DNA from: Anaerolineales bacterium
Lineage (GTDB): Bacteria > Chloroflexota > Anaerolineae > CG2-30-64-16
Reading direction: 5' to 3'
Length of the DNA: 64,000 nucleotides
Assembly (NCBI GenBank): GCA_017882045.1
Contig: JADGQF010000001.1
Coordinates: 16,288 to 80,287 of the forward strand
The position numbers and the translations under genes were made by a program. The notes beneath the pieces are model-generated. The model was not told the DNA's origin. It searched no databases and saw nothing but the letters and a program-made list of their open reading frames with translations. Positions 139-33,313 of the stretch are shown here, one piece after another; position 1 is the first letter of the stretch, and every line of letters starts with the position of its first letter.

Positions 139-158
139 CCGGTTACGGAGTTGTGTTG

Positions 159-1439
159 ATGGCGGAAATGAGAGTTGAGATTGCGGGGCTGGAGTTCCCG
201 AACCCGATCCTGCCGGGAGCGGGCCCGCTGGTTGATAATGGCCTGAAACTGGCCGCGGTGGCCGCGGGCGGGGCCGGCGGACTGGTGACCCGTACGGTCA
301 CGGTGGCGCCGGCTACTGCACCGCCGCGGCATGCCGAAATACGGGGCGGCGTGCTCAACACGCCCCGCTGGTCGGAACTGCCGCTCAGCCAGTGGCTCGA
401 GATAGAATACCCGCGCGCCAGGGCGGCGGCAGATGCGGCCGGTATCCCGCTGATCGTCAGCATTGGCTACACGGCGGAAGAAGTCGCGTACCTGGCGCCG
501 CGCGTGGCGCCCTTCGCCGACGCCTTCGAGCTGAGCATGATGCACGGTGAACCCGGCCTGCTGACAGACCCGGTGACCGAGGGGGAGCTGGTTCACCGCC
601 AGCCGGTGAGCACCTGGACGCGCGGACCGTCACCGGTGCTGGATGCGATCCGGGCGATCAAACCGGCAACCGACAAACCGTTGATCGTGAAAGTCAATCC
701 GCTGGGCAGCAGCGAAATGGGCGCCCTGGCGCGCGAGATCGAGGCCGCCGGCGCGGATGCCATCACGGCTACAAACGCTTTCGGTCCCGTCACCGCGCTG
801 GACGTCGAGAGCGGGCGCTTCCTGCTTGACACGCCCGACGGTCACGCCTGGCTTTCGGGCGCGGCCCTGAAACCGCTGGCCCTACGCTGCGTGTTCGATA
901 TCGCGCGCTCCGTTTCTATCCCGGTCATCGGCGCCGGCGGAATCACGAAGACCGAAGATGCGGTTGAGTACTTGATGGCCGGGGCCAGCGCCGTGGAGAT
1001 CACGACCGGGGCGCTGAAGACCGGCGCAGCCTTCTACGGCCGGTTCGCCGGGCGCCTGAGCAACTGGCTGGATGCGCACGGCTACGCATCGGTGGCGGAG
1101 ATACAGGGGCTCGGCATCCGGCGCTGGGAATCGCTGCAGCCGCATCGCGACAGCGTCCCGGTGCTGTACGATATCGACGAATGTATCGGCTGCGAATTGT
1201 GCGAGCTGAGCTGCCACTACGACGCAATCTATATGGTGCCGGGCAAAAACAAGGTCGGCGGTGATCTCGTTGCCGAGTTCAACGCCGACCGCTGCTTTGG
1301 CTGCGGACTGTGCGTAGTGCGCTGCCCGACCGATGCACTGCTGATGCCAATGTTGCAGCGGGACGGGATTTACTTGCATCCCAAGACACTGCAGCCGGCA
1401 AAGCCGGGTAGCGGATCGATCGAGACGCCGACACGGTAG
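159..1439 (+). CDS. Dihydroorotate/dihydropyrimidine dehydrogenase (PreA)-like flavoprotein with C-terminal 2x[4Fe-4S] ferredoxin domain
   Basis: ATG at 159 lies 8 nt after ACGGAG. The N-terminus (A)EMRVEIAGLEFPNPILPGAGP is typical of class-1 DHOD/DPD TIM-barrel flavoproteins. The C-terminus has two CxxCxxCxxxCP motifs (CIGCELCELSCHYD and CFGCGLCVVRCPTD). Confidence 0.85.
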   Translation: MAEMRVEIAGLEFPNPILPGAGPLVDNGLKLAAVAAGGAGGLVTRTVTVAPATAPPRHAEIRGGVLNTPRWSELPLSQWLEIEYPRARAAADAAGIPLIVSIGYTAEEVAYLAPRVAPFADAFELSMMHGEPGLLTDPVTEGELVHRQPVSTWTRGPSPVLDAIRAIKPATDKPLIVKVNPLGSSEMGALAREIEAAGADAITATNAFGPVTALDVESGRFLLDTPDGHAWLSGAALKPLALRCVFDIARSVSIPVIGAGGITKTEDAVEYLMAGASAVEITTGALKTGAAFYGRFAGRLSNWLDAHGYASVAEIQGLGIRRWESLQPHRDSVPVLYDIDECIGCELCELSCHYDAIYMVPGKNKVGGDLVAEFNADRCFGCGLCVVRCPTDALLMPMLQRDGIYLHPKTLQPAKPGSGSIETPTR

Positions 1440-1505: not shown

Positions 1506-2267
1506 TCAGGCGATGCCCAGGACCATGATCATCTTGCCAGGGTCCCAGTCGACGATAACCTGGCCCTTAACGTTGAAAGTGGGCGTAGTTTCGAAGCCGT
1601 TGGCCCAACCCTTGACACGTTGGGCCGCGGCGCGGTCCTTGGAGATATCCACTTCAACGTAAGAGATGTGATGTTCCTTGAGGAAGGCGCGTGCCCGCAT
1701 GCAGCCTGGGCACCAGGGCGTGCAGTACATGACGACGTCCGCCTCGGGCTCAGGGGCTGTCACGACGGCCGGTTTTTCCACGACGGCTTGCGCGGCCGCG
1801 AGCTTGGGATCGAGCCTGGCAAGCTCCGCGAAGAGCACCTCATTGTCGGGCTGCTCGGCGATATTGTGGACGTCGACGTAGCGGATGATGCGCTGCTTAT
1901 CGATGACAAAGATCGCACGTTCGGAGTAGCCCTCAGTGCGGAACACACCATACATCTGGGCAACACGCCCGTGCGGGAAGAAATCGCTCAAGAGCGGGTA
2001 ATCGATCCCGCCCAAACTGTCGGTCCATGCCTTGAGGCAGTCCGTGCTGTCAACACTCAGACCCAGAACCTGGGTCTCCATCCCATCGAACCGGGCCAGC
2101 GCGGCCTGGTAGGAAGGGATCTGGTTCGTTCAAACGGGTGTCCAGGCCAGCGGGAAGAAGGCCATCACGACATTGCACCGGCCGCGGTAGTCGCTCAGGC
2201 GAACGGATTGCCCGCTATGGCTTTTGAGGATAAAATCAGGAGCGAGTTGTCCAACAGTTAAAGGCAT
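1506..2267 (-). CDS. Selenocysteine-containing AhpE-like peroxiredoxin fused to a CPGC glutaredoxin/NrdH-like domain (UGA at 2132-2130 read as Sec)
   Basis: ATG at 2267 has GGGAGGA 5 nt upstream. The first 45 aa, MPLTVGQLAPDF...FFPLAWTPV, end at TGA exactly at the peroxidatic Cys position. The same frame continues with 16 sense codons (TNQIPSYQAALARFDG) into ORF 1506..2081, which carries the Prx core (YPLLSDFFPHGRVAQMYGVF, RAIFVIDKQRIIRY), a linker and a CPGC thioredoxin-fold domain. The stitched product is 253 aa. Confidence 0.8.
2090..2110 (-). promoter_or_regulatory. Candidate bacterial SECIS stem-loop downstream of the peroxiredoxin UGA
   Basis: On the minus strand, +20 to +40 after UGA reads ACCAGGCC-GCGCU-GGCCCGGU. 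GGCC pairs with GGCC and CC with GG, leaving a 5-nt apical loop. An outer CGAACC/GGUUCG pairing (+2..+7 with +38..+43) is an alternative fold. Folded by eye only. Confidence 0.35.
2130..2132 (-). other. In-frame UGA, predicted Sec codon of the peroxiredoxin
   Basis: Plus-strand tca at 2130-2132 is TGA on the minus strand. It follows ...AWTPV and precedes TNQ..., replacing the Cys of the Prx PxxxTxxC motif. Confidence 0.75.
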
Positions 2268-2404
2268 ACCTATCCTCCCTGCGATCGAGAAGGTTACAAC
2301 AGGCGCTATGATACCATAAAACAACGCATGTGATAAAAGTTGAAGTAGGGGAATGACTGAAAGGATGGCCCGTTTTCCCCAGACGCCCTGAAAGGAGTGG
2401 TCCG

Positions 2405-2581
2405 ATGCAAGAACATGGCTGGTCCTGGCTGCGAGCGCTGGAGTCGGGTTCGCTGAGCCCACACCAACTGGAGTCTCTGCAAGCAATGGTGGATGCGGGT
2501 GAAGTCGAGAGCCTGGCCGATGCGGCCCGGCTGCTGGATCATGAGTTGGCAAAACGCGCGGATCACGAGCAGGACCTTTAG
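2405..2581 (+). CDS. Small hypothetical protein (58 aa) immediately upstream of the Mo-hydroxylase genes
   Basis: ATG at 2405 is preceded by AAAGGAGTGG (GGAG about 7 nt upstream) and the stop is TAG at 2579-2581. It encodes MQEHGWSWLRALESGSLSPHQLESLQAMVDAGEVESLADAARLLDHELAKRADHEQDL. It falls below the 60-aa cut-off of the ORF track, has codon third positions like neighbouring genes, and ends 18 nt before the next start. Confidence 0.4.
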   Translation: MQEHGWSWLRALESGSLSPHQLESLQAMVDAGEVESLADAARLLDHELAKRADHEQDL

Positions 2582-2599: not shown

Positions 2600-4006
2600 A
2601 TGTGGCAAACTTACTATGCGCCGGCCAGCCTGGCGGAAGCGCTAGAGTTACTGGCCCGGCACGGCGATGCTTGCCGTATTGTGGCCGGCGGCACTGACCT
2701 GATCCTCGAGCTGGAGCGCGGCGTGCGCCGGCAAGAGATCATGGTGGATGTCTCGCGCATTGCGGGACTGGACAACCTGACGCTGCGCGCTGGCATCCTC
2801 TCGCTCGGCCCCTTGGTGACTCACAACCAGGTGGTCGCCTCGCCCGATGCGGTGGCGCGGGCTTTCCCGCTGGCCCGCGCTTGTTGGCTGGTCGGCGCGC
2901 CGCAGATCCGTAACCGGGGCACGGTCGCCGGCAACCTGGTGACCGCCAGCCCGGCCAACGATACCATCACCCCCCTCTGGGCGATGGATGCGACGCTGAC
3001 GCTCTCCAGCCGGAACCGGAGCAGCCGTACCCTGCCCTTCGACCAGTTTTTCCTGGGCGTGCGCCGCACCGCTCTCGCGCCGGACGAAATGGTCACGAGC
3101 ATCGACATGCCCGCGCTGGGCGCCAACGAACGTGGCACGTTCCTCAAGCTGGGCCTGCGCCAGGCGCAAGCCATCAGCGTTGTCAATGTCGCGGTGATTG
3201 TGGATTTCGGGCCGGGACCGGAGGCCAGGGTCGGACGGGCACGCATCGCGCTGGGCTCGGTTGCGCCGACCATCCTGCGCGCCGCCCAGGCCGAGGCCTA
3301 CCTGGCCGGCCAGAGACTGCGCGACGAGGTCATTGAAGGAGCGGCCGAACTGGCGGCTGCTGCTGCCCGGCCCATTTCCGATGTGCGGGCAGGCGCGGAC
3401 TACCGGCGCGATATGATTCGGGTCATGACCGCACGCGCGCTACGCCAACTCAGGGATGGCACGGAATGCGCCGGCTGGCCGGAAAGGCCCGTGCTGCTGT
3501 GGGGAGGGCGCAACCGGCTGCCGGCCGCATCTCCGGCTCTCCCGGCCTCGGGAGACATTGAGTTCACGCTCAACGGGCAACCGATCAGGCTGCGGGGCGT
3601 GCATGGCAAGACGTTGCTGCGCGCCCTCCGGGAGGACGCGGGATTGACGGGCACTAAAGAAGGCTGCGCCGAAGGCGAGTGCGGCGCCTGTACGGTCTGG
3701 CTGGATGGCAAGGCCGTGATGAGTTGCCTGGTGCCGGCCGAACGAGCTCAGGGCTGCCAGGTCGTGACCGTGGAGGGACTGGGCGGGGCCGGCGGCGAGC
3801 TACATCCCGTGCAGCAGGCCTTCATCGAGGCCGCGGCCGTGCAGTGCGGCTACTGCACGCCGGGCTTCCTGATGTCGGCGGCCAATCTCCTGGAGGAATT
3901 GCCGCATCCGACGCAGGATGAGATTCGCCAGGCCCTGACCGGCAACCTGTGTCGTTGTACCGGGTATTACAAAATCCTGGAAGCCGTGGAAAAGGCGGTC
4001 AGATGA
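2600..4006 (+). CDS. Xanthine dehydrogenase/CO dehydrogenase-family fused FAD-binding (CoxM/XdhB-like) and [2Fe-2S] (CoxS-like) subunit
   Basis: The N-terminal half has FAD-binding motifs (IVAGGTDLILELERG, RNRGTVAGNLVTASPANDT). The C-terminal 150 aa has both 2Fe-2S motifs (GCAEGECGACTV; QCGYCTPGF...CRCTGY). Confidence 0.9.
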   Translation: MWQTYYAPASLAEALELLARHGDACRIVAGGTDLILELERGVRRQEIMVDVSRIAGLDNLTLRAGILSLGPLVTHNQVVASPDAVARAFPLARACWLVGAPQIRNRGTVAGNLVTASPANDTITPLWAMDATLTLSSRNRSSRTLPFDQFFLGVRRTALAPDEMVTSIDMPALGANERGTFLKLGLRQAQAISVVNVAVIVDFGPGPEARVGRARIALGSVAPTILRAAQAEAYLAGQRLRDEVIEGAAELAAAAARPISDVRAGADYRRDMIRVMTARALRQLRDGTECAGWPERPVLLWGGRNRLPAASPALPASGDIEFTLNGQPIRLRGVHGKTLLRALREDAGLTGTKEGCAEGECGACTVWLDGKAVMSCLVPAERAQGCQVVTVEGLGGAGGELHPVQQAFIEAAAVQCGYCTPGFLMSAANLLEELPHPTQDEIRQALTGNLCRCTGYYKILEAVEKAVR

Positions 4007-6222
4007 AATACCAGATTGTGGGCGCGAACGCCCCACGCATCGATGCCCCGGCGAAGGTGACGGGCCAGGCGCTTTACTCGGGCGACATCGCCTACCCGGA
4101 CATGCTACACCTTGCCACACTGTTTGCCGGACGGCCCCACGCCCGCATCCTGGCCATCGATACCGCGGAGGCCGAGGCCGCGCCGGGCGTGATCGCAGTT
4201 TTCACGGCGCGTGATGTTCCGGTGAACGAACACGGCCTGCAAATGCAGGACCAGCCCGTCCTGTGCGGCCCCGGCTCGTCAAAAGAGGGCGCGGACGTGG
4301 TGCGTTTCGTGGGCGACCAGGTAGCGATTGTCGTGGCGGAGAGCGAAACGCAGGCCAGGGCCGCGCTTAAGCTGATCCGCATCGAATGGCAGGATCTGCC
4401 CCTGCTGCTGAATCCCGAAGAGGCCATGCAACCCGGCGCTTTCCGGTTGCATCCCCATGCGCCCGACAACATTACTTACACCTATCATATCCGCAAGGGC
4501 GATGCCGAAGCCGCCTTGCGCGCGGCGGATGTGATGGTGGAAGGGGTCTTTGAGACGCCAGTCCAGGAACACGCCTATCTCCAGCCCGAGGCAGGCGTGG
4601 CCTACATCGACGAGGCCGGGCGCATCACGGTTGAGGCCGCCGGACAGTGGACGCACGTCGATCGCGCGCAGATCGCGCACTCGCTGGGCCTGGCCGATGA
4701 AGAGGTGCGGGTGATTTACCCGGCCATCGGCGGCGCGTTCGGCGGGCGCGAGGACATTTCCGTGCAGATCACCCTGGCCCTGGCCGCCTGGCGCCTGGCG
4801 CAGCGCGGTATACGCCGGCCGATCAAGACCATCTGGAGCCGGGAAGAATCGATTATCGCCCATGGCAAGCGCCACGCGATGAAGCTGTGGGCGCGCTTCG
4901 GCGCCCGGCGCGATGGCAAGCTGGTCGCCGCGCAAGTGAAGGTCATCGCCGACGGCGGCGCGTATTGCTATACCAGCAACAAAGTGCTGGGCAACTGCAC
5001 GTTGACCTGCACCGGGCCGTACGAGATCCCGAACGCGAAGGTCGACACTTATGCCATCTACACGAATAATCTGCCCGGCGCGGCATTCCGCGGCTTTGGC
5101 GGCCCGCAGGGCCATTTCGCCGCCGAAAGCCTGATGGACCGGCTGGCCGAAGCGCTCAACATCGATCCCGTCGAATTGCGCCTGAAGAACATCCTGACCG
5201 GCGAGAGCCTGCTGACCACCGGCACGCCCATCCCCGGCGGCGTCGGCCTGACCGAGACCGTGATCGCCGCGGCCCGGGCGGCAGGCTGGACGCAGGACGA
5301 GGCTGGCCATTGGCACAAACCGCCGCTGGAGCGGGGCGATGGGGCGGTCCGGCGCGGCCTGGGGTTTGCCTGCGGCTTCAAGAACGTTGGCTTCAGCTAC
5401 GGCTATCAAGAGAACAGCTACGCGCGCGTCGAGCTGGAGGGCGCAGCGGCGCCCGAAAGAGCCGTCGTCTATTATGCCGGCGCAGACGTGGGCCAGGGAA
5501 ACCACACTGTGGTCGCGCAGATGGCCGCCGAGGTGCTGGGCATCCCATTCGACTGCGTGCAGGTGGTGGCCTCGGATACGGCGAAGATGGGTGACTCGGG
5601 TAGCGCCTCCGCTTCTCGCCTGACCTATATGTCGGGCAACGCGGTGCGCGGTGCAGCCGCGAAGGCGCTGGAGGCCTGGCAGAACGAAGACCGCCCGGCC
5701 GTCGGCGAGTTCGTCTACCTGGCGCCCAAGACCAGCCAGTTGGACCACGACACCGGCTTTGGCAAGCCCAACTTCGCTTACGGGTACGTCGCGCAGGCCG
5801 CCCAGCTCACTGTGGACACTGAGACCGGCGAGGTGCTGGTCGAGCGCTTCATCAGCGCCGACGACGTGGGTCAGGCGATCAACCCGCAGCAGGTGCAGGG
5901 CCAGATCGAAGGCGGCGCCGTGCAGGCGCTGGGCTACGCGCTGATGGAAAACTTCAAAACCGCGGGTGGCAGGGTGTTGACGGACAAGTTGAGCACCTAT
6001 CTCATCCCGACCATCCTCGACGTGCCCGCAAGGCTGGATTCGATCATCGTCGAGGTGCCGGATCCAAACGGCCCATGGGGCGCGCGCGGCATGTCAGAGA
6101 TGCCTTATCTGCCGGCTGCAGCCGTCGTGGCCAACGCGGTCCATGATGCAACCGGCGTGCGCTTCGACGATTTCCCTCTGACGGCTGAGCGCGTGTGGCG
6201 CGGGCTGCGGAAGCGAGACTGA
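4003..6222 (+). CDS. Xanthine dehydrogenase-family molybdopterin-binding large subunit
   Basis: ATG at 4003 overlaps the upstream stop (ATGA). The N-terminus MKYQIVGANAPRIDAPAKVTGQALYSGD and motifs GGAFGGRED and AFRGFGGPQ are typical of aldehyde oxidase/xanthine dehydrogenase Mo subunits. Confidence 0.9.
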   Translation: MKYQIVGANAPRIDAPAKVTGQALYSGDIAYPDMLHLATLFAGRPHARILAIDTAEAEAAPGVIAVFTARDVPVNEHGLQMQDQPVLCGPGSSKEGADVVRFVGDQVAIVVAESETQARAALKLIRIEWQDLPLLLNPEEAMQPGAFRLHPHAPDNITYTYHIRKGDAEAALRAADVMVEGVFETPVQEHAYLQPEAGVAYIDEAGRITVEAAGQWTHVDRAQIAHSLGLADEEVRVIYPAIGGAFGGREDISVQITLALAAWRLAQRGIRRPIKTIWSREESIIAHGKRHAMKLWARFGARRDGKLVAAQVKVIADGGAYCYTSNKVLGNCTLTCTGPYEIPNAKVDTYAIYTNNLPGAAFRGFGGPQGHFAAESLMDRLAEALNIDPVELRLKNILTGESLLTTGTPIPGGVGLTETVIAAARAAGWTQDEAGHWHKPPLERGDGAVRRGLGFACGFKNVGFSYGYQENSYARVELEGAAAPERAVVYYAGADVGQGNHTVVAQMAAEVLGIPFDCVQVVASDTAKMGDSGSASASRLTYMSGNAVRGAAAKALEAWQNEDRPAVGEFVYLAPKTSQLDHDTGFGKPNFAYGYVAQAAQLTVDTETGEVLVERFISADDVGQAINPQQVQGQIEGGAVQALGYALMENFKTAGGRVLTDKLSTYLIPTILDVPARLDSIIVEVPDPNGPWGARGMSEMPYLPAAAVVANAVHDATGVRFDDFPLTAERVWRGLRKRD

Positions 6223-8601: not shown

Positions 8602-10008
8602 ATGAGTGAGCAATCTCGCCCGCTGATCCCCCAGGCGTTTCTCGCACGCATGGAGCGCTGGCTGGGCGACGAGTACCCGGCTTTTCTCGCGAGTTACGAC
8701 CAACCGGCCACGAACGGACTGCGCGCCAACACCCTCAAGATTGCCCCCGAAGCGCTCCGGGAACGCCTGCCCTTCGCGTTGGAGACGCTGACCTGGCCTC
8801 CGGCAGCCTTCCGCGTATCCGAGGAGGAGCAGCCTGGGCGGCACCCCTATCACGCTGCCGGGCTATACTACCTCCAGGATCCTTCGGCCATGAGCGTAGC
8901 CGCGTTGCTGGCGCCTCAGCCGGGCGAACGGGTGCTCGACCTGGCAGCCGCTCCGGGCGGCAAGGCCACCCACCTCGCATCGTTGCTGGCGAACCAGGGG
9001 CTGCTGGTGGCCAATGAGATCCACCCGCGCCGGGTCTGGGACCTGGCCGAGAACCTCGAACGCTGGGGGGCGCGCAACGCGGCCATCACCGCCGAGACTC
9101 CCGAGCGCCTGGCCGAGCGTTTTCCGGACTTCTTTGACCGGGTGCTGCTTGACGCCCCCTGCAGCGGCGAGGGCATGTTTCGCAAGAGCGATGCGGCACG
9201 GCGCGAATGGGCCGCAGAACTGGTGCTGGGCTGCGCCAACCGTCAGACGGGTATTCTGGACGCGGCCGCGCGCATGCTGCGCCCAGGGGGCCTGCTGGCC
9301 TACTCCACCTGCACCTTTGCAGCCGAAGAGGATGAGGGCACGGTGGCTCGCTTCCTGGAAACTCATGCGGATTTCGAGCCGGTCGAACCGGCCAGGCAAG
9401 CGGGCTTCGCACCCGGACGCCCTGAGTGGCTGGGGAACGAGAAAGTTGGCGAGGCGGCCCGCGACGGCCTGGGGCGGGCGGTGCGCCTGTGGCCGCACAC
9501 CGGCCCGGGCGAGGGCCATTTCATTGCCTTGCTGCGCCGCTGCGAGCGGGAGGCGCACGAGGATCTACCAGGGTGGCGCTTGCCGAAGCTGCCCGTCGAA
9601 GCCACCCGCTTTTACGAGACCTTTTGCCGGGAGCATTTGCAGCGCGCGCCGGCCACAGAACGCCTGGCGCTGGCCGGCTCGTACCTGTACCAGGTTCCCG
9701 CCGGTCTGCCCGATCTCAGCGGTCTGCGTTTTATCCATCCCGGCTGGTGGCTCGGAACGCTGAAGAAGGGACGCTTCGAGCCCAGCCAGGGGCTGGCAAT
9801 GGGCTTGAGCCCGGCCGATGTGAGGCGGGTCGCCAACCTGGACTCCGCCGCTCCCCAGGTGCTGACCTATTTGCGCGGGGAGAGCCTCCCCAACGCCGGC
9901 GCGGACGGTTGGGTCCTGGTGACCGTGGATGGCTTTCCTCTGGGCTGGGGCAAGCGGGTGCAAGGGACATTGAAGAGCCACTATCCACGCGGGCTGAGAA
10001 GAGTGTGA
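8602..10008 (+). CDS. RsmB/RsmF (NOL1/NOP2/Sun) family rRNA cytosine-C5 methyltransferase
   Basis: Motifs are YYLQDPSAMSVAALL, LDLAAAPGGKATHLA, DAPCSGEGMFRK and YSTCTF. Confidence 0.85.
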   Translation: MSEQSRPLIPQAFLARMERWLGDEYPAFLASYDQPATNGLRANTLKIAPEALRERLPFALETLTWPPAAFRVSEEEQPGRHPYHAAGLYYLQDPSAMSVAALLAPQPGERVLDLAAAPGGKATHLASLLANQGLLVANEIHPRRVWDLAENLERWGARNAAITAETPERLAERFPDFFDRVLLDAPCSGEGMFRKSDAARREWAAELVLGCANRQTGILDAAARMLRPGGLLAYSTCTFAAEEDEGTVARFLETHADFEPVEPARQAGFAPGRPEWLGNEKVGEAARDGLGRAVRLWPHTGPGEGHFIALLRRCEREAHEDLPGWRLPKLPVEATRFYETFCREHLQRAPATERLALAGSYLYQVPAGLPDLSGLRFIHPGWWLGTLKKGRFEPSQGLAMGLSPADVRRVANLDSAAPQVLTYLRGESLPNAGADGWVLVTVDGFPLGWGKRVQGTLKSHYPRGLRRV

Positions 10009-10823
10009 TGATGTCTTCTTTTGATGACGTGCTGGTGTTGATCAAGGGCGCCGGCGACCTGGCCAGCGGGGTTGCGGCGCGTCTTTATCGCAGCGGCTTT
10101 CCGGTCGCAATGACCGAACTGGCGCAGCCGTTGATGGTCAGGCGCACGGTCGCCTTCGGCGAGGCAGTCTACGAGGGGGAATTTGCCGTCGAGGGAATTG
10201 TGGCCCGCCGGGTTAGCTCGCCGGACGAGGCGCGCCGCGCGCTTGCCGAGGGTAAGATTCCGGTGGCGGTGGACCCCGAGGCCAGCCTGCGCCTGGCATT
10301 GAAACCGGCCGTGGTGGTGGATGCCATCATGGCGAAACGCAACACGGGAACGCGGCCCGCGGACGCGCCGTTAGTGGTGGGGCTTGGTCCCGGCTTTAGA
10401 GCCGGGCAGGACTGTCACGCAGTGGTGGAGACAAACCGCGGACACTGGCTGGGCCGGGTGATCTGGGATGGGGAGGCGGAGCCAGACACCGGCATCCCCG
10501 GTGAAGTGGCCGGGCAACGCGGTAGGCGCATGTTGCACGCCCCTGCCGATGGCATCCTTGAAGCCCACGCGGCCATCGGAGACATGGTCAAGGCCGATCA
10601 GGTGCTGGCGACAGTCTCCGGAACGGAAGTGCGGGCCGGGCTTGACGGCGTTCTGCGCGGGCTGATCCACAGCGGGCTGGTCGTCTCAGCCGGGCTTAAG
10701 ATCGGCGACGTTGACCCGCGCGCCGAGCGCGCCCATTGCTTCAGCATCTCGGATAAGTCGCTGGCCGTGGGTGGCGGGGTACTCGAGGCCATCCTGGCCG
10801 GGAAACCGCCGGCTGCGGGTTGA
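10008..10823 (+). CDS. yqeB: Selenium-dependent molybdenum hydroxylase accessory protein, YqeB (EF2563) family
   Basis: ATG at 10008 overlaps the rsm stop (GTGATGATG). The N-terminus MMSSFDDVLVLIKGAGDLASGVAARLYRSGFPVAMTELAQPLMVRRTVAFGEAVYEG matches my memory of short YqeB-family proteins. The long track ORF from 9426 is an out-of-context extension over the rsm gene. Confidence 0.78.
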   Translation: MMSSFDDVLVLIKGAGDLASGVAARLYRSGFPVAMTELAQPLMVRRTVAFGEAVYEGEFAVEGIVARRVSSPDEARRALAEGKIPVAVDPEASLRLALKPAVVVDAIMAKRNTGTRPADAPLVVGLGPGFRAGQDCHAVVETNRGHWLGRVIWDGEAEPDTGIPGEVAGQRGRRMLHAPADGILEAHAAIGDMVKADQVLATVSGTEVRAGLDGVLRGLIHSGLVVSAGLKIGDVDPRAERAHCFSISDKSLAVGGGVLEAILAGKPPAAG

Positions 10824-10854
10824 GCCGCCTGTGCCTCTAAAAGGGGAGCTGCAA

Positions 10855-12303
10855 GTGCTCATCTCTCAAGCCCTACGAATACAGACCCAAGACATCGTCA
10901 CCATCGTCGGTGGCGGCGGCAAGACGACGCTCATGTTCCGATTGGCCGAGGAGTTGGCCGGTTCCGGGCGGCACGTGGTCACTACTATGACCACGCGTAT
11001 TTTTGCCAGCCAGATGCAGCGGGCGCCGGCCTTCCTGGTCCTGCACGATGAGCAGACCCTGCTGGCCCAGTTGCCGCAGGCGTTGGACACATATGGCCAC
11101 GTACTGGTCGCGGGGAACATTCAGGTTGAGATAGACAAAGTAGCCGGCATCCCGTCGGCCCTGGCCGAGCGCATCGCGGCCCTGCCTGGGGTGGACGCTT
11201 TGATTATCGAAGCGGATGGCTCACGGCGTCTGCCGTTCAAGGCCCCGGCCGCGCACGAACCGGTCGTCCCGCCGAGCACGACCATCCTGATACCCGTCGT
11301 GGGCATCGACGTGTTGGGACAGGCGCTGGACGCGGGACACGTCCACCGGCCGCAGATCGTCGCCGAACTTGCCGGCGCGACCTTGGGCCAACCGGTGACC
11401 CCGGAGATAGTCGCGGCGGTGATCGCCCATCCGGCAGGCGGCGCCAAGGATCTGCCCCCGGGCGCGCGGCTGGTGCCTTTCCTGAACAAGGTGGAAAGCG
11501 AAGAGACACTGAACGCGGCACGCACGCTCGCACGCCTCCTGCTCGCCTACGAGCCGGTCGACAGCGTGATCATCGGCGCCGCAGAGGCCGCAGATCCGGT
11601 GAGCGAGGTCTGGAGCCGTATCGGGGCGGTGGTCCTGGCGGCCGGAGGGGCCAGCCGGTACGGAGAGCTGAAACAACTATTGCCGTGGGGCGATGTGCCG
11701 TTGGTGGCGCACGTAACCCGGCAGGCGCTGGCCTGCCCAGACGTGACGCGCGTGGCAGTGACCCTGGGCGCCGGAGCCGACGGGGTGCACGCGGCGCTGA
11801 CCGGCGCGGCGCTGACCGGCGCGGACGTGTTACAGGCGCCGGTCCCGGATTGGGAAGCCGGCCAGAGTCGCAGCGTCCGCGCCGGGCTAGACGCCCTGCG
11901 GCGCGACAGTGCGCCGCTCGGTGGCGTCCTATTCCTCCTGGCCGATCAGCCGGGCGTCTCAACCGCCTTGCTGGCTGCCCTGATCCGCCGCCATCGGGAG
12001 ACGCTCGCCCCCATCGTCGCGCCCCGCTACCAGGGGCAGCGCGGCAACCCCGTGCTTTTCGACCGCGCCACTTTCGCGGAGTTTGCGCGACTGGAAGGCG
12101 ACATCGGCGCCCGGCCCATCCTGCAGGCGTACGCCGGGCAAATCGCCTGGCTGGACTGGCCAACAGCAGAGATCATCGAAGACATCGACACGCCCGCCGA
12201 TTATGCCCACCACTCGGCCGGCCGCGCTGCCCGGCCAGGCCACCCCGCAGGCGCCGATCAGGAGCACGGGCTGAGCGACAGGAGCGAGGAGAGGGATGGC
12301 TGA
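10855..12303 (+). CDS. Fusion of YqeC-family selenium-dependent hydroxylase accessory protein with MocA/MobA-like molybdenum cofactor nucleotidyltransferase
   Basis: GTG at 10855 lies 6 nt after AAGGGGAG. The N-terminal half has IVTIVGGGGKTTLMFRLAEEL...VVTTMTTRIF (YqeC P-loop signature). The C-terminal half has GAVVLAAGGASRYGELKQLLPW, LLADQP and RGNPVLF (NTP_transf_3 / MocA signature). Confidence 0.8.
   Translation: MLISQALRIQTQDIVTIVGGGGKTTLMFRLAEELAGSGRHVVTTMTTRIFASQMQRAPAFLVLHDEQTLLAQLPQALDTYGHVLVAGNIQVEIDKVAGIPSALAERIAALPGVDALIIEADGSRRLPFKAPAAHEPVVPPSTTILIPVVGIDVLGQALDAGHVHRPQIVAELAGATLGQPVTPEIVAAVIAHPAGGAKDLPPGARLVPFLNKVESEETLNAARTLARLLLAYEPVDSVIIGAAEAADPVSEVWSRIGAVVLAAGGASRYGELKQLLPWGDVPLVAHVTRQALACPDVTRVAVTLGAGADGVHAALTGAALTGADVLQAPVPDWEAGQSRSVRAGLDALRRDSAPLGGVLFLLADQPGVSTALLAALIRRHRETLAPIVAPRYQGQRGNPVLFDRATFAEFARLEGDIGARPILQAYAGQIAWLDWPTAEIIEDIDTPADYAHHSAGRAARPGHPAGADQEHGLSDRSEERDG
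11791..11820 (+). repeat. Perfect in-frame 15-nt tandem duplication (GCGGCGCTGACCGGC x2) inside the MocA-like domain
   Basis: Read directly from the sequence. It encodes AALTG-AALTG. Confidence 0.85.
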
Positions 12304-32263: not shown

Positions 32264-33313
32264 ATGACCCGCGAAGAGATCGTCAGGCTGACAAGCCTGA
32301 GCACGTGCGCCGGCTGAGCGTCGAAGCTGCCGCCCGCGGCGCTGGCGCAGGTACTGCGCCCACTGCAAAACCTGTTCCCGGCCGGGCAGTATCCCGACCT
32401 GTTGGTAGGTCTCGGCGTGGCAGACGATGCTGCGGTGTTCCGGCTGAATGACGAACAGGCTATCATCCAAACGGCGGACTTCTTTACGCCAATCGTAGAT
32501 ACCGCCTATGAGTTCGGCGCGATCGCGGCGGCGAACGCAATGAGCGACGTCTACGCAATGGGCGGTGAGGTGCTGTTTGCCCTTAACCTGGCCGCCTTCC
32601 CGCCCGATCTGCCGGTCAGCATCCTATCGGACATCCTGCGCGGTGGGGCCGCAGTAGTCGGTTCGGTGGGCGCGCCCATCGCCGGCGGCCACACCATTCA
32701 GGACAAAGAGCCCAAGTACGGCCTGGCGGTAACGGGCATCGTCCACCCCGCGCGCGTCTTCACCAAGGGCGGCGCCCACCCCGGCGACCCCCTGGTGCTA
32801 ACCAAGCCGCTCGGCACGGGCACCATCACCACAGCGATCAAGCAGGAGAAAGTGGAGCAGGAACACCTGGATGGCGCGGTGACAAGCATGATGCGCCTTA
32901 ACCGGGTCGCGGCGCAGGCGGCACAAGCAGTCGACGTGCGCGCAGCCACTGACGTCACCGGGTTCGGGCTGCTGGGCCACGCGCTCGAAATGGCGCAGGC
33001 CGGCCAGGTGGGTCTGCGCATTCGCTTCGACGCCCTGCCCTGGCTGCCCGGCGCCTGGCAATACGGCGCGGACTGGATTTTCCCAGGCGGCGCACACAAT
33101 AATCATGATTACTACAACTCGCATGTTACTTACACCCGGCCGGTAGCGGATTGGCAGGCTATGCTGCTGCACGACCCGCAGACCTCGGGCGGCCTGCTCA
33201 TCGCGGTGCCGCGTGGCAGGCTGGAGGAGTTCCTGGCCTTCTGCACCGTGCGCGGTCAGCCGGCCTGGGTGATCGGAGAAGTCGTCGAGGGTGATCAGGT
33301 CGAGATCGTCTGA
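32264..33313 (+). CDS. selD: Selenide, water dikinase (selenophosphate synthetase) with in-frame UGA (Sec) at codon 18
   Basis: ATG at 32264 lies 4 nt after GAGGTGG. The N-terminus [31 protein letters not shown] aligns with E. coli ...LTQYSHGAGCGCKISPKVL, placing Sec at Cys17 and conserving Lys20. The same frame runs into track ORF 32402..33313 ([31 protein letters not shown]...). The only stop in between is TGA at 32315-32317. Confidence 0.9.
32315..32317 (+). other. In-frame UGA, predicted Sec codon of selD
   Basis: This is codon 18 of the extended reading frame, at the position of the catalytic Cys. Confidence 0.85.
32326..32360 (+). promoter_or_regulatory. Candidate SECIS region downstream of the selD UGA
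   Basis: There are two possible GC-rich stem-loops. One is +9..+29 (GC-GCCGC/GCGGC-GC with a CGC loop). The other is +27..+43 (GGCGCAG-GUA-CUGCGCC, 7 bp). Folded by eye only. Confidence 0.35.

Follow-up and report, generated by a model that had tools for sequence, protein, structure and literature searches.

On the minus strand of the 64-kb stretch of Anaerolineales DNA analysed here (the window), a single frame that runs from an ATG at 2267 to a TGA at 1506, with the TGA at 2132-2130 as its sole interruption, quite probably encodes one 253-residue selenoprotein, in which an AhpE-like peroxiredoxin (Prx) carrying selenocysteine (Sec) is fused to a glutaredoxin-fold (Grx) domain, and in which the internal UGA would be recoded through a distal hairpin (H2) as the SECIS with a proximal structured domain (H1) as spacer. 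The evidence comes from the frame itself, a Sec/Cys pair among relatives, selection on the coding sequence, the folds of the two domains, RNA helices specific to the Sec forms, an apex of the selD type in H2, and a selD gene in the same window that is itself of the Sec type. The coordinates of all features are given in Table 1.

Table 1. Position, strand and supporting details of the features in the window.
Feature	Position	Strand	Details
Predicted complete selenoprotein gene, 253 codons	1506..2267	minus	ATG 2267, Sec-UGA 2132-2130, terminator TGA 1508-1506
Shine-Dalgarno-like GGGAGGA	2273..2279	minus	5 nt before ATG 2267; read directly from the sequence
In-frame UGA, predicted selenocysteine 46, peroxidatic residue of P39-x3-T43-x2-U46	2130..2132	minus	Aligns with Cys45 of M. 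tuberculosis AhpE (MtAhpE)
AhpE-like peroxiredoxin domain, residues 5-131	1875..2255	minus	Invariant P39, T43, R117; Pfam, PDB, Foldseek
Cys77, start of helix alpha3	2037..2039	minus	Conserved in at least 90% of family members, three alignments
Proximal 40-nt structured domain H1	2081..2120	minus	Starts 10 nt after the UGA; contains the hairpin 2110-2090 of the preliminary description
Distal hairpin H2, AGACCCAG-GUU-CUGGGUCU, apex G-GUN-C	2059..2077	minus	+55..+73; loop 60 nt from the UGA
Glutaredoxin-fold domain, residues 178-238	1554..1736	minus	After an Ala/Pro/Glu-rich linker; Pfam Glutaredoxin (PF00462), E = 3.4e-14
Redox motif C186-P-G-C189	1701..1712	minus	Family consensus W-C-P-x-C, both Cys invariant
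selD (selenophosphate synthetase), itself a predicted selenoprotein gene	32264..33313	plus	UGA 32315-32317, motif CAG*ASK; tblastn and Pfam AIRS/AIRS_C
selD SECIS hairpin GGCGCAG-GUA-CUGCGCC	32344..32360	plus	Loop 33 nt after the UGA; reference SECIS apex of the lineage

Gene structure and coding evidence

The 45-codon N-terminal part of the gene reads MPLTVGQ...FFPLAWTPV up to the TGA at 2132-2130, and the 16 stop-free codons that follow it (TNQIPSYQAALARFDG) run into a 191-codon ORF (2081-1506) in the same frame. The preliminary description of this DNA had placed the ORFs 2130..2552 and 1506..2081 in one minus-strand frame, had located ATG 2267 at 5 nt after GGGAGGA, and had counted 253 codons in total with no stop in the 16 bridging codons; direct reading of the sequence and a check of the frame agree with it on these points. 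Homologs align colinearly with the window protein across its full length, and the first in-frame ATG lies 44-45 codons upstream of the TGA in 51 of 76 relatives. The pN/pS ratio is 0.25 upstream of the UGA, 0.34 across the bridge and 0.23 downstream, and, judged from these ratios, purifying selection acts on both sides of the UGA and across the bridge.

We give next to no credence to the UGA being a true stop, in which case the locus would be a pseudogene, two genes (a 45-aa piece and a 191-aa 'glutaredoxin' starting from ATG 2081) or the outcome of a sequencing error. Gene callers do annotate the split form (in the relative L083 the 45-aa N-terminal piece is also called as a gene, ending 48 nt before the downstream ORF), and an ATG does exist at 2081. 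However, the codon aligned to this internal ATG is an ATG in 15 of the 76 loci and is neither ATG, GTG nor TTG in 36 of them, and the family has no conserved internal start, while the bridging codons hold the family-invariant residues Q49, I50, P51 and Y53. Two separate genes with a start at 2081 in the relatives, which the preliminary description had itself considered, are not what the alignments contain. The same holds for an error at 2130-2132, as 75 of 80 relatives at the species level keep the TGA and independent assemblies contain it too; moreover, the TGA is not a sequencing error because the identical 191-aa ORF recurs on at least 23 contigs from separate assemblies (JGI, NCBI, ENA and Logan). 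Purifying selection is equal on either side of the TGA, a 191-aa product would miss the Prx active site and part of the N-terminal fold, and a Sec-specific RNA structure lies downstream of the TGA. Nor is UGA a general sense codon here, since the gene's own terminator is TGA.

Sec/Cys exchange and database annotation

The alignment puts the UGA on Cys45 of M. tuberculosis AhpE, and thereby at the peroxidatic-Cys position to which it had been assigned from the sequence alone. Among 80 species-representative loci, nearly all of them from Anaerolineae, the aligned codon is TGA in 75, TGT in four and TGC in one, with conserved flanks, so that the Cys/Sec pair looked for in the homologs is indeed there, and further Cys forms are present among the protein matches beyond these five loci. 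At least 593 candidate loci were confirmed by tblastn, and by this count of sequence matches the fusion family is very large in Anaerolineae and not rare.

As the preliminary description had foreseen, automatic annotation truncates the gene, and databases store it as 191-aa 'glutaredoxin' fragments. Some database entries for close homologs show W or G at the Sec column. In entry P0010 the W is a product of the translation procedure, since the codon on its contig is a plain TGA, and by analogy with this verified case the G in entry P0008 may be explained by code-25 translation. These entries could be taken to mean that the UGA is read as Trp or Gly by an alternative code, and some anaerobes are reported to have a selC*/SelB* system that could place Cys at UGA (PMC5389517), so that a reading as Cys, through a SelB paralog and a tRNA-Cys(UCA) resembling tRNA-Sec, has to be weighed as well. 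We regard both as very improbable. Codes 4 and 25 are excluded by the TGA that ends this gene and many other ORFs of the window, and the W of P0010 stands over a plain TGA. The selC* genes were reported from Firmicutes, Thermodesulfobacteria, Nitrospirae and Proteobacteria and not from Chloroflexi, in which genuine tRNA-Sec was noted (PMC5389517). In the relative L023, a tRNA located about 135 nt downstream of the orthologous Prx gene scores as tRNA-Sec (Rfam, 70.3 bits vs 47); the discriminator base after it is a G, whereas selC* has U73. A Sec-type selD is present in the window. We rejected UGA-to-Cys recoding by selC* on two of these grounds, the taxa in which selC* is found and the L023 tRNA being a tRNA-Sec.

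With the UGA read as Sec, the architecture had been presented as one that could not be placed in a described family. This stands insofar as we found neither a description of a Sec AhpE-Grx fusion or of Anaerolineae selenoproteins in the open-access literature, where absence is no proof, nor a curated family model for the fusion; however, the family is very large, and the architecture is no rarity. Sec-peroxiredoxins and Prx-Grx hybrids are each known already, and it is the combination of a Sec AhpE-type Prx with a Grx domain for which no description was found. In hundreds of Anaerolineae genomes and on thousands of metagenomic contigs, the gene is present as a truncated ~190-aa 'glutaredoxin' or as a spurious full-length product whose active site has Trp or Gly, an annotation that one curated family model with the Sec position would repair.

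Peroxiredoxin and glutaredoxin domains

The N-terminal domain matches Pfam AhpC-TSA (E = 1.2e-36) and shows the hallmarks of the Prx fold, namely PxxxTxxU (P39, T43, U46) and the catalytic R117, with P39, T43 and R117 invariant in the family. When the PDB was searched with its sequence, M. tuberculosis AhpE (Rv2238c) was the best match (E = 4.9e-29) and the next Prx class followed at 8e-20, the bit scores being 104.6 for AhpE, 74.5 for the best 2-Cys Prx and 66.8 for BCP. For the fold comparison we used an AF2 model of a natural Cys-form homolog that is 59% identical to the window protein (pLDDT 91.5, pTM 0.80), with which Foldseek again placed AhpE on top (rmsd 1.6 Å, TM 0.88-0.92, or about 0.9, for the homolog model). 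By the PDB sequence search and by Foldseek on the homolog model, the Prx domain is nearer to AhpE than to other Prx subfamilies, and the AhpE type proposed in the preliminary description agrees with both.

The C-terminal domain had been described as a fused Grx-like domain with a CPGC motif after an Ala/Pro/Glu linker, which the Pfam Glutaredoxin match and the invariant CPxC motif bear out; W185, C186, C189 and the cis-Pro motif T228-P229 do not vary in the family. Its nearest solved sequences are 3zit, a 78-aa CPPC Grx-fold 'thioredoxin' (1.7e-9), and 2lqo, M. tuberculosis mycoredoxin-1 (1.8e-8). None of the NCBIfam Grx models reaches its cut-off on the fused domain (YruB 52.1 vs 88.55, mycoredoxin 48.8 vs 89.5 and NrdH 25.4 vs 85.75). 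From these scores, the domain resembles the small redoxins of the mycoredoxin/NrdH/YruB type while belonging to no curated family.

Proposed function and comparison with known systems

In the proposed mechanism, the U46 selenolate would reduce a hydroperoxide and become a selenenic acid, which would be attacked by a thiol to give a selenenylsulfide; the attacking thiol would be that of Cys77 or one of the CPGC domain, either of the same chain or of a partner subunit. The CPGC pair would resolve this selenenylsulfide and become a disulfide, to be re-reduced by an external donor that may be a thioredoxin-reductase-type enzyme or a low-molecular-weight thiol. The mycobacterial AhpE/mycoredoxin relay would thus be built into a single polypeptide, with selenium added. 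Given its conservation, Cys77 is a candidate resolving or relay thiol. In neighbourhood clustering, even the best family was present at just 8 of 80 loci, so that no partner gene is conserved and the genomic context gives no clue to the external reductant.

Peroxiredoxins with Sec are known as the 'Prx, PF00578, TxxU' selenoprotein family and from PrxU of Eubacterium acidaminophilum (PMC1794560, PMC2398784, PMC13188914), and in the selenoproteome surveys consulted the only reported Prx fusion is with a PP2C phosphatase. The window protein shares with these peroxiredoxins the predicted replacement of the peroxidatic Cys of PxxxTxxC/U by Sec, membership of PF00578, a UGA with an intragenic SECIS, and the existence of Cys homologs. 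It differs in being AhpE-like, in its C-terminal CPxC Grx-fold domain, and in a proposed SECIS apex 60 nt from the UGA. Nor is it PrxU, as it reaches 65.3 bits with the NCBIfam equivalog of that protein, NF040737, vs a cut-off of 270.

AhpE is reduced by Mrx1 and mycothiol, according to the passage of PMC6178380 that cites Hugo 2014. The fusion mirrors this experimentally demonstrated electron relay because its two parts are nearest to AhpE and mycoredoxin-1, the latter being among the closest sequence relatives of the fused domain. Unlike the mycobacterial pair, it has a predicted Sec and not Cys, its reductant is fused and not separate, and its host belongs to Chloroflexota and not to Actinobacteria; moreover, MtAhpE, a strict 1-Cys Prx, lacks Cys77, which at least 90% of the family retain, and the redox motif is WCPGC in a domain that stays below the cut-off of the mycoredoxin model. 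The natural fusion of an AhpE-type peroxidase with a mycoredoxin-like CPxC domain independently supports the AhpE-Mrx relay and, if the reading is true, would show in the manner of a natural Rosetta stone that mycoredoxin-like domains recycle AhpE-type peroxidases beyond Actinobacteria as well.

The same layout is known from Haemophilus influenzae PGdx (Prx5-Grx, 1nm3), which likewise has an N-terminal Prx and a C-terminal Grx-fold reductant with CxxC in one chain. With the homolog model, Foldseek aligned both domains to 1nm3 over 258 columns (E = 2e-14, 21% identity), and the domain packing differs from that of PGdx, since the rmsd is 11.6 Å and the TM 0.47-0.49. The Prx of PGdx is of the Prx5 subfamily and devoid of selenocysteine, whereas that of the window is AhpE-like. 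PGdx uses a classical glutathione-dependent CPYC Grx.

The fusion is probably a major peroxidase of its lineage, which is dominant in anaerobic digesters and sediments and at subsurface sites. As a self-contained Sec peroxidase with natural Cys relatives, it would offer a way to measure what selenium contributes to the Prx active site.

RNA structures downstream of the UGA

The RNA after the UGA holds two structures. The window sequence of H1 folds with -19.8 kcal/mol (z = -2.5 vs shuffled sequences), and its outer helix is 83% paired in the family with compensatory changes at two pairs. H2 folds with -12.8 kcal/mol (z = -2.8) and is 96% paired across the family, with GC/AU/GU and UA/GC covariation. 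Both are found in the MFE folds of most Sec forms (47 of 76 for H1, 68 of 76 for H2) and in 0 of 9 Cys forms, and the mean energy of H2 is -10.2 kcal/mol in Sec forms vs -2.6 in Cys forms (p = 1.7e-6, n = 9 for Cys), a contrast that could partly reflect lineage, as the nine Cys forms are phylogenetically separate. RNAalifold finds H2 as the sole helix with default scoring and recovers H1 and H2 with RIBOSUM scoring. Throughout 76 sequences, the H2 loop has G70 conserved in at least 90%, an invariant U71 and a following base that is free to vary. A long-range stem around the UGA, seen in the single-sequence MFE fold, was dropped, being 62-83% paired in the family with little covariation.

The consensus bacterial SECIS has an apical loop of 3-9 nt, an upper stem of 4-16 bp, an MFE of at most -7.5 kcal/mol, a G within the first two loop positions (N1-G-[G|U]-N-N2) and a UGA-to-loop distance of 16-37 nt (PMC13188914). 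H2 resembles it in its 3-nt loop (5 nt if the closing G-C opens), its 8-bp stem, its energy, its location downstream of the UGA inside the coding region and its G-GUU-C apex, which fits N1-G-[G|U]-N-N2. It differs from the consensus (bSECISearch; E. coli fdhF type) in that the UGA and its loop are 60 nt apart (alignment columns 10-69), outside the published 16-37 nt, with a conserved 40-nt domain in between.

The SECIS hairpin of selD folds with -12.1 kcal/mol (z = -3.1) and is 96-100% paired over 57 distinct selD sequences, with the loop GGU in 49 of the 57 and GGUNCUG in 47; in selD relatives, a variable hairpin precedes it. The apex of H2 is identical in type to that of selD; the two differ in spacing, and the selD hairpin, at 33 nt, fits the consensus fully. 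In the 64-kb window there are two CAG-GUN-CUG hairpins with a stem of at least 7 bp, both after in-frame UGAs, with 0.055 expected, a census that is independent only insofar as the selD family defines the motif, the apex having first been spotted in these two genes. From these sequence comparisons, H2 is proposed to be the SelB-binding SECIS.

The preliminary description had instead placed the SECIS in a stem-loop at +20..+40, which lies within H1, and the reading of the protein could be right with this proximal hairpin (apex at about +28, 2110-2090) as the functional SECIS; H2 would then owe its conservation to something else, for instance to a part in pausing the ribosome, in stabilizing the mRNA or in contacting SelB a second time. 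The UGA-to-SECIS spacing matters in E. coli, where the minimal SECIS begins about 10 nt after the UGA, and H1 starts at about this position; the proximal apex is 27 nt from the UGA, within the 16-37 nt range, the first loop base in the window is a G, and the inner helix includes many pair types. In addition, the TGA-bearing relative L057 lacks H2 entirely and has a proximal apex, GCC-AGUUU-GGC, that conforms to the consensus. We nevertheless consider this alternative unlikely. A GC-rich hairpin does exist at +20..+40, but taken alone (-10.3 kcal/mol, z = -1.1) it is no better than shuffled sequences, and it is weakly conserved and probably not bound by SelB: it is probably not the SECIS because its inner helix is about 74% paired in the 76 Sec forms, fully in 9 of them, and pairs almost as well in Cys forms (57-60%). 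Moreover, its loops (GAAUA, GAUAA, GCGCU and others) are mostly without G[G|U] and have nothing in common with the selD SECIS, whereas the apex of H2 is an exact match to that of selD, and RNAalifold with default scoring reports no helix other than H2.

With H2 as the SelB-binding hairpin, recoding of the UGA would be directed by mRNA structure within the coding region, in which H1, 40 nt long from 10 nt past the UGA, is followed by a 3-nt gap and then by the 8 bp of H2 with the G-GUU-C apex. H1 would serve as a compact spacer that holds H2 near the ribosome despite a loop 60 nt downstream. To a more general model, we would assign about even chances: an Anaerolineae two-hairpin SECIS would consist of the UGA, ~10 nt, a variable spacer hairpin, 0-3 nt and a G-GUN-C SelB hairpin, and in the Prx gene the spacer would have grown to 40 nt and the loop would act from 60 nt. 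If true, the distance is outside the 16-37 nt predictor window and the E. coli spacing rule, and the two-hairpin architecture would be a natural demonstration that Sec insertion tolerates a long linear distance when the intervening RNA folds. If H2 is the SelB site, SECIS searches that apply the 16-37 nt rule would mis-assign or miss such genes, and the tolerance to distance can be tested.

Selenocysteine machinery and selenium use

The window had been said to contain a selD gene with an in-frame UGA of its own; we located selD by tblastn with an E. coli SelD query, and the UGA was found at 32315 in the motif CAG*ASK. Where this motif was located in metagenomic relatives, the codon was TGA in 61 of 61. 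None of selA, selB and selC was found in the 64-kb window: Pfam annotation of about 20 ORFs in the surroundings of the Prx gene and of selD yielded neither selA nor selB, and no tRNA or Rfam match was obtained in the window (ARAGORN; Rfam at gathering thresholds). The presence of selD suggests Sec decoding in this genome. A scan of the flanks of the 80 relatives for more genes with a UGA and a hairpin returned off-frame noise only.

The selD motif of this lineage is G*ASK and not of the G*GCK type. Markers of a selenium-dependent molybdenum hydroxylase also lie within the window and, together with the Sec-Prx and the Sec-selD, they point to a substantial selenium requirement.

Reading frame and conservation across the UGA

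Direct reading of the minus strand of 1400-2700 reproduced exactly the frame of the preliminary description, with a Shine-Dalgarno-like sequence, an ATG, an in-frame TGA, a bridge and a downstream ORF, and the stitched peroxiredoxin (Prx) product has 253 residues. The gene itself ends in TGA, thus UGA does not generally act as a sense codon here. At least 23 contigs from JGI, NCBI (GCA_036726245.1), ENA and Logan assemblies carry an identical 191-aa ORF, and in the related locus L083 the 45-aa N-terminal piece is also gene-called, with 48 nt between its end and the downstream ORF; since this arrangement (TGA, 16 codons, ATG) is that of the window, a sequencing error does not account for the TGA.

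Scanning one genome per species gave at least 593 tblastn-confirmed candidate loci for the Prx gene. The best 80 of these are from Anaerolineae/Chloroflexota almost throughout, and the codon aligned with the predicted Sec (U46), conserved in sequence on both sides, is TGA in 75, TGT in 4 and TGC in 1, which supplies the Cys/Sec pair expected at this column. The pN/pS ratio (Nei-Gojobori) is 0.25 in the 18 codons before the TGA, 0.34 in the 16 bridging codons and 0.23 in the next 40, and where the window has its internal ATG, 15/76 loci have ATG and 36/76 a codon other than ATG/GTG/TTG. The ratios on both sides of the TGA and the unconserved internal ATG rule out the two-gene and pseudogene readings; separate genes with a functional internal start and an unconserved bridge, the outcome that the preliminary description had set against its own reading, are not what the relatives show. 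In one relative (L170 65-808, protein entry P0068) the Sec column holds CGA (Arg), one substitution from TGA, with both RNA helices intact; as this contig is a 953-nt singleton, the probable explanation is either a sequencing error or an inactivation that happened very recently.

A protein search returned 2198 relatives. In the best 120 both Pfam domains are always present, and these proteins form two size classes, one near 190 aa (75% coverage) and one near 250 aa. The shorter class, like the separately called 45-aa piece in L083, is the annotation split that had been foretold. Among the longer entries, the alignment has W or G at the UGA column in those nearest the query and C in more distant ones. 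W stands in P0009, P0010, P0012, P0019, P0028, P0033, P0037-P0039, P0069, P0078 and P0093, and G in P0008 and P0011. In P0010, the one such entry checked on DNA, the contig carries TGA at this position, so its W stems from translating TGA as Trp; the W/G entries likely arose where genetic code 4 or 25 was applied to short contigs. Such full-length entries with a Trp/Gly active site pollute alignments and could mislead active-site inference.

As previously proposed, the window's selD also has an in-frame UGA, and the position is TGA in all 61 metagenomic relatives where it was located (80 examined). The 64-kb window gave no tRNA, selC included, and no Rfam match, and no selA or selB stood among the ORFs annotated in it. 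About 600 kb of relatives' flanks held two tRNAs only, one being a tRNA-Sec, followed by a G discriminator, that lies ~135 nt downstream of the orthologous Prx gene in a Levilinea sp. MAG (L023), with no selA/selB beside it; this linkage, seen once, may be a coincidence. A system that decodes UGA as Cys (selC*/SelB*) is present in other phyla and is not reported in Chloroflexi (PMC5389517).

Coordinates of the features discussed, in the window unless a relative is named
Feature	Position	Strand	Remark
DHO_dh + 4Fe-4S protein (PreA-like)	153-1439	+	other side of Prx gene
Prx gene terminator TGA	1508-1506	minus	direct reading
191-codon ORF	2081-1506	minus	same frame as 45-codon piece; direct reading
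H2, AGACCCAG-GUU-CUGGGUCU	2077-2059	minus	columns 62-69/73-80
H1, 40-nt domain	2120-2081	minus	alignment and RIBOSUM-scored alifold
16 open codons after TGA, TNQIPSYQAALARFDG		minus	direct reading
In-frame TGA	2132-2130	minus	direct reading
45 codons from ATG 2267, MPLTVGQLAPDFILKSHSGQSVRLSDYRGRCNVVMAFFPLAWTPV		minus	direct reading
Shine-Dalgarno-like GGGAGGA	2279-2273	minus	5 nt before ATG 2267
58-aa ORF	2405-2581	+	between XDH-like and Prx genes; no Pfam match
FAD/CO-dehydrogenase flavoprotein + 2Fe-2S fusion	2600-4006	+	part of xanthine-dehydrogenase (XDH)-family molybdoenzyme
MoCo-binding subunit	3949-6222	+	part of the same molybdoenzyme
RsmF-like gene	8602-10008		ORF annotation
465-aa ORF	9426-10823	+	no Pfam match
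YqeC-MobA-like fusion	10711-12303	+	ORF annotation
selD	32264-33313	+	in-frame TGA at 32315, motif CAG*ASK
selD SECIS hairpin, GGCGCAG-GUA-CUGCGCC	32344-32360	+	loop 33 nt after UGA
tRNA-Sec, anticodon TCA	L023 4866-4958	+	Rfam RF01852, 70.3 bits (gathering score 47)

RNA structure downstream of the UGA

We aligned 76 TGA-form sequences, gap-free from -6 to +81, pairing and covariation being counted per sequence and not per evolutionary event. With default scoring, RNAalifold predicted a sole helix, the distal hairpin H2, which is 96% paired; by these per-sequence counts pair 64/78 is GC in 44, AU in 26 and GU in 4, and pair 63/79 is UA in 49 and GC in 10, so that a synonymous third position in a Gly codon varies together with the first position of a Thr/Ala/Val codon. 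RIBOSUM-scored alifold recovered both H2 and the proximal domain H1, whose outer helix is 83% paired, with compensatory changes between synonymous third positions of Ile/Pro codons and second positions 10 codons downstream. When the 3' partners were shifted by 1-3 columns, pairing fell from 85% to 21-50%. In the window, H2 reaches -12.8 kcal/mol (z = -2.8), H1 -19.8 (z = -2.5) and both together -34.6 (z = -3.1). In nine Cys-codon relatives, a small set phylogenetically distinct from the Sec forms, H2 is intact in none, its mean dG is -2.6 kcal/mol versus -10.2 in the Sec forms (p = 1.7e-6), and the MFE fold contains H2 in 0/9 versus 68/76 Sec forms and the H1 outer helix in 0/9 versus 47/76.

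The preliminary description had placed the SECIS at about +20..+40, and a hairpin does fold there (2110-2090, the inner part of H1), but it is just 74% paired in the 76 TGA forms and alone reaches only -10.3 kcal/mol (z = -1.1), while H2 is almost always paired. The selD SECIS is an independent reference for the SelB-binding apex. Across 57 distinct selD sequences its hairpin is 96-100% paired, with GGU in the loop in 49 (GGUNCUG in 47 of those) and CGUG in place of GGUN at the apex in 8, and a short variable hairpin always lies 5' of it. In the first ~55 nt after the UGA of selD relatives L085-L164, the SECIS consists of two hairpins that abut in tandem, the first variable (for example GGGCC-CUGA-GGCCC) and the second the conserved GGCGCA-GGUNC-UGCGCC.

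H2 shares with the selD SECIS a CAG-GUN-CUG apex, which fits the published bacterial pattern N1-G-[G|U]-N-N2 (PMC13188914, Fig. 2). Exactly two such hairpins whose stems reach 7 bp or more occur on the two strands of the window taken together, selD's and H2, against 0.055 expected (200 dinucleotide shuffles), in a census whose motif was first spotted in these same two genes. Spacing is the sole criterion of the bacterial model that H2 fails (60 nt versus 16-37 nt), and we therefore propose for this lineage an architecture in which the UGA is followed by about 10 nt, a spacer hairpin (40 nt long in the Prx gene), 0-3 nt and the SelB hairpin; H2, judging from sequence, would be the last of these. 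It is unlikely that SelB instead binds the proximal hairpin, even though in L057, a TGA form without H2, the proximal apex GCC-AGUUU-GGC conforms to the consensus pattern 27 nt from the UGA. L057 (about 4127-4210 of the complete chromosome OY969578.1, encoding ...WNVEIIAIS) is the sole TGA-form relative lacking the distal hairpin, and may represent an alternative SECIS solution or a decaying gene.

Domain architecture and possible catalysis

Pfam assigns residues 5-131 to AhpC-TSA (E = 1.2e-36) and 178-238 to Glutaredoxin (E = 3.4e-14). The top PDB sequence match is M. tuberculosis AhpE (E = 4.9e-29, 104.6 bits; next Prx class 74.5 bits), with the UGA column on its peroxidatic Cys45, which bears out the AhpE-type Prx with a glutaredoxin-like domain first suggested. 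On its own, the C-terminal domain most resembles a CPPC 'thioredoxin' of 78 aa with the Grx fold (3zit, 1.7e-9) and Mtb mycoredoxin-1 (2lqo, 1.8e-8). An AlphaFold model of P0013, a natural Cys-form homolog 59% identical to the window protein (pLDDT 91.5, pTM 0.80), superposes its Prx domain on AhpE at 1.6 Å (TM 0.88-0.92); both its domains align with the H. influenzae hybrid Prx5-Grx (1nm3), but poorly (11.6 Å, TM below 0.5, 21% identity). In family alignments P39, T43, R117, W185, C186, C189, T228 and P229, among others, are invariant, and Cys77 is kept in at least 90% of members.

A possible cycle is one in which the U46 selenolate would reduce peroxide and become a selenenic acid, a thiol of the CPGC domain or Cys77 would then form a selenenylsulfide with U46, and the CPGC pair would resolve it, leaving a CPGC disulfide to be re-reduced by an external donor. 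Precedents for such a relay are MtAhpE, described where PMC6178380 cites Hugo et al. 2014 as reduced by mycoredoxin-1 and mycothiol, and the H. influenzae hybrid. No conserved neighbourhood surrounds the Prx gene (the commonest neighbour is in 8/80 loci), a result compatible with a self-contained unit.

Both Prx-Grx hybrids and the pairing of AhpE with mycoredoxin are already known, and Sec-peroxiredoxins (PF00578, TxxU) have featured in catalogues from 2001-2006 onwards, appearing in a 2026 review and in the GOS survey, where the sole Prx fusion is Prx-PP2C. In the open-access literature we found no account of an AhpE-type Prx with Sec that is joined to a Grx-fold domain, nor of Anaerolineae selenoproteins; NCBIfam has no curated model for the Prx-Grx family and none of its models reached cut-off (PrxU 65 vs 270, YruB 52 vs 88.6, mycoredoxin 49 vs 89.5), in line with the preliminary description, which could not place the fusion in a described family. 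Its protein chemistry is expected; the interest lies in the scale of mis-annotation and in a candidate SECIS outside the spacing range.

Neighbouring genes

The XDH-family molybdoenzyme and the YqeC-MobA-like fusion adjoin the Prx gene, and the Sec-selD is 20 kb off. Haft & Self in 2008 reportedly took YqeC, SelD and an XDH-like enzyme as markers of the selenium-dependent molybdenum hydroxylase trait; as this marker set occurs in the window, the source organism may put selenium to two uses. In close relatives (L081 4944-6576) the DHO_dh/4Fe-4S protein is followed by a 1089-aa Fer4_20/Pyr_redox_2 protein. The two look like a dihydropyrimidine-dehydrogenase-type pair, which with the XDH-like enzyme suggests a purine/pyrimidine catabolism cluster. 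The 465-aa ORF and the RsmF-like gene overlap at the latter's 3' end, and the ORF extends as far as the YqeC-MobA gene. This ORF may be a spurious call; alternatively, it may conceal a gene so far unrecognised (a YqeB-like partner?) in the unassigned ~700-nt stretch 10008-10711. In close relatives the 58-aa ORF is gene-called in three assemblies made independently (L081-L083).
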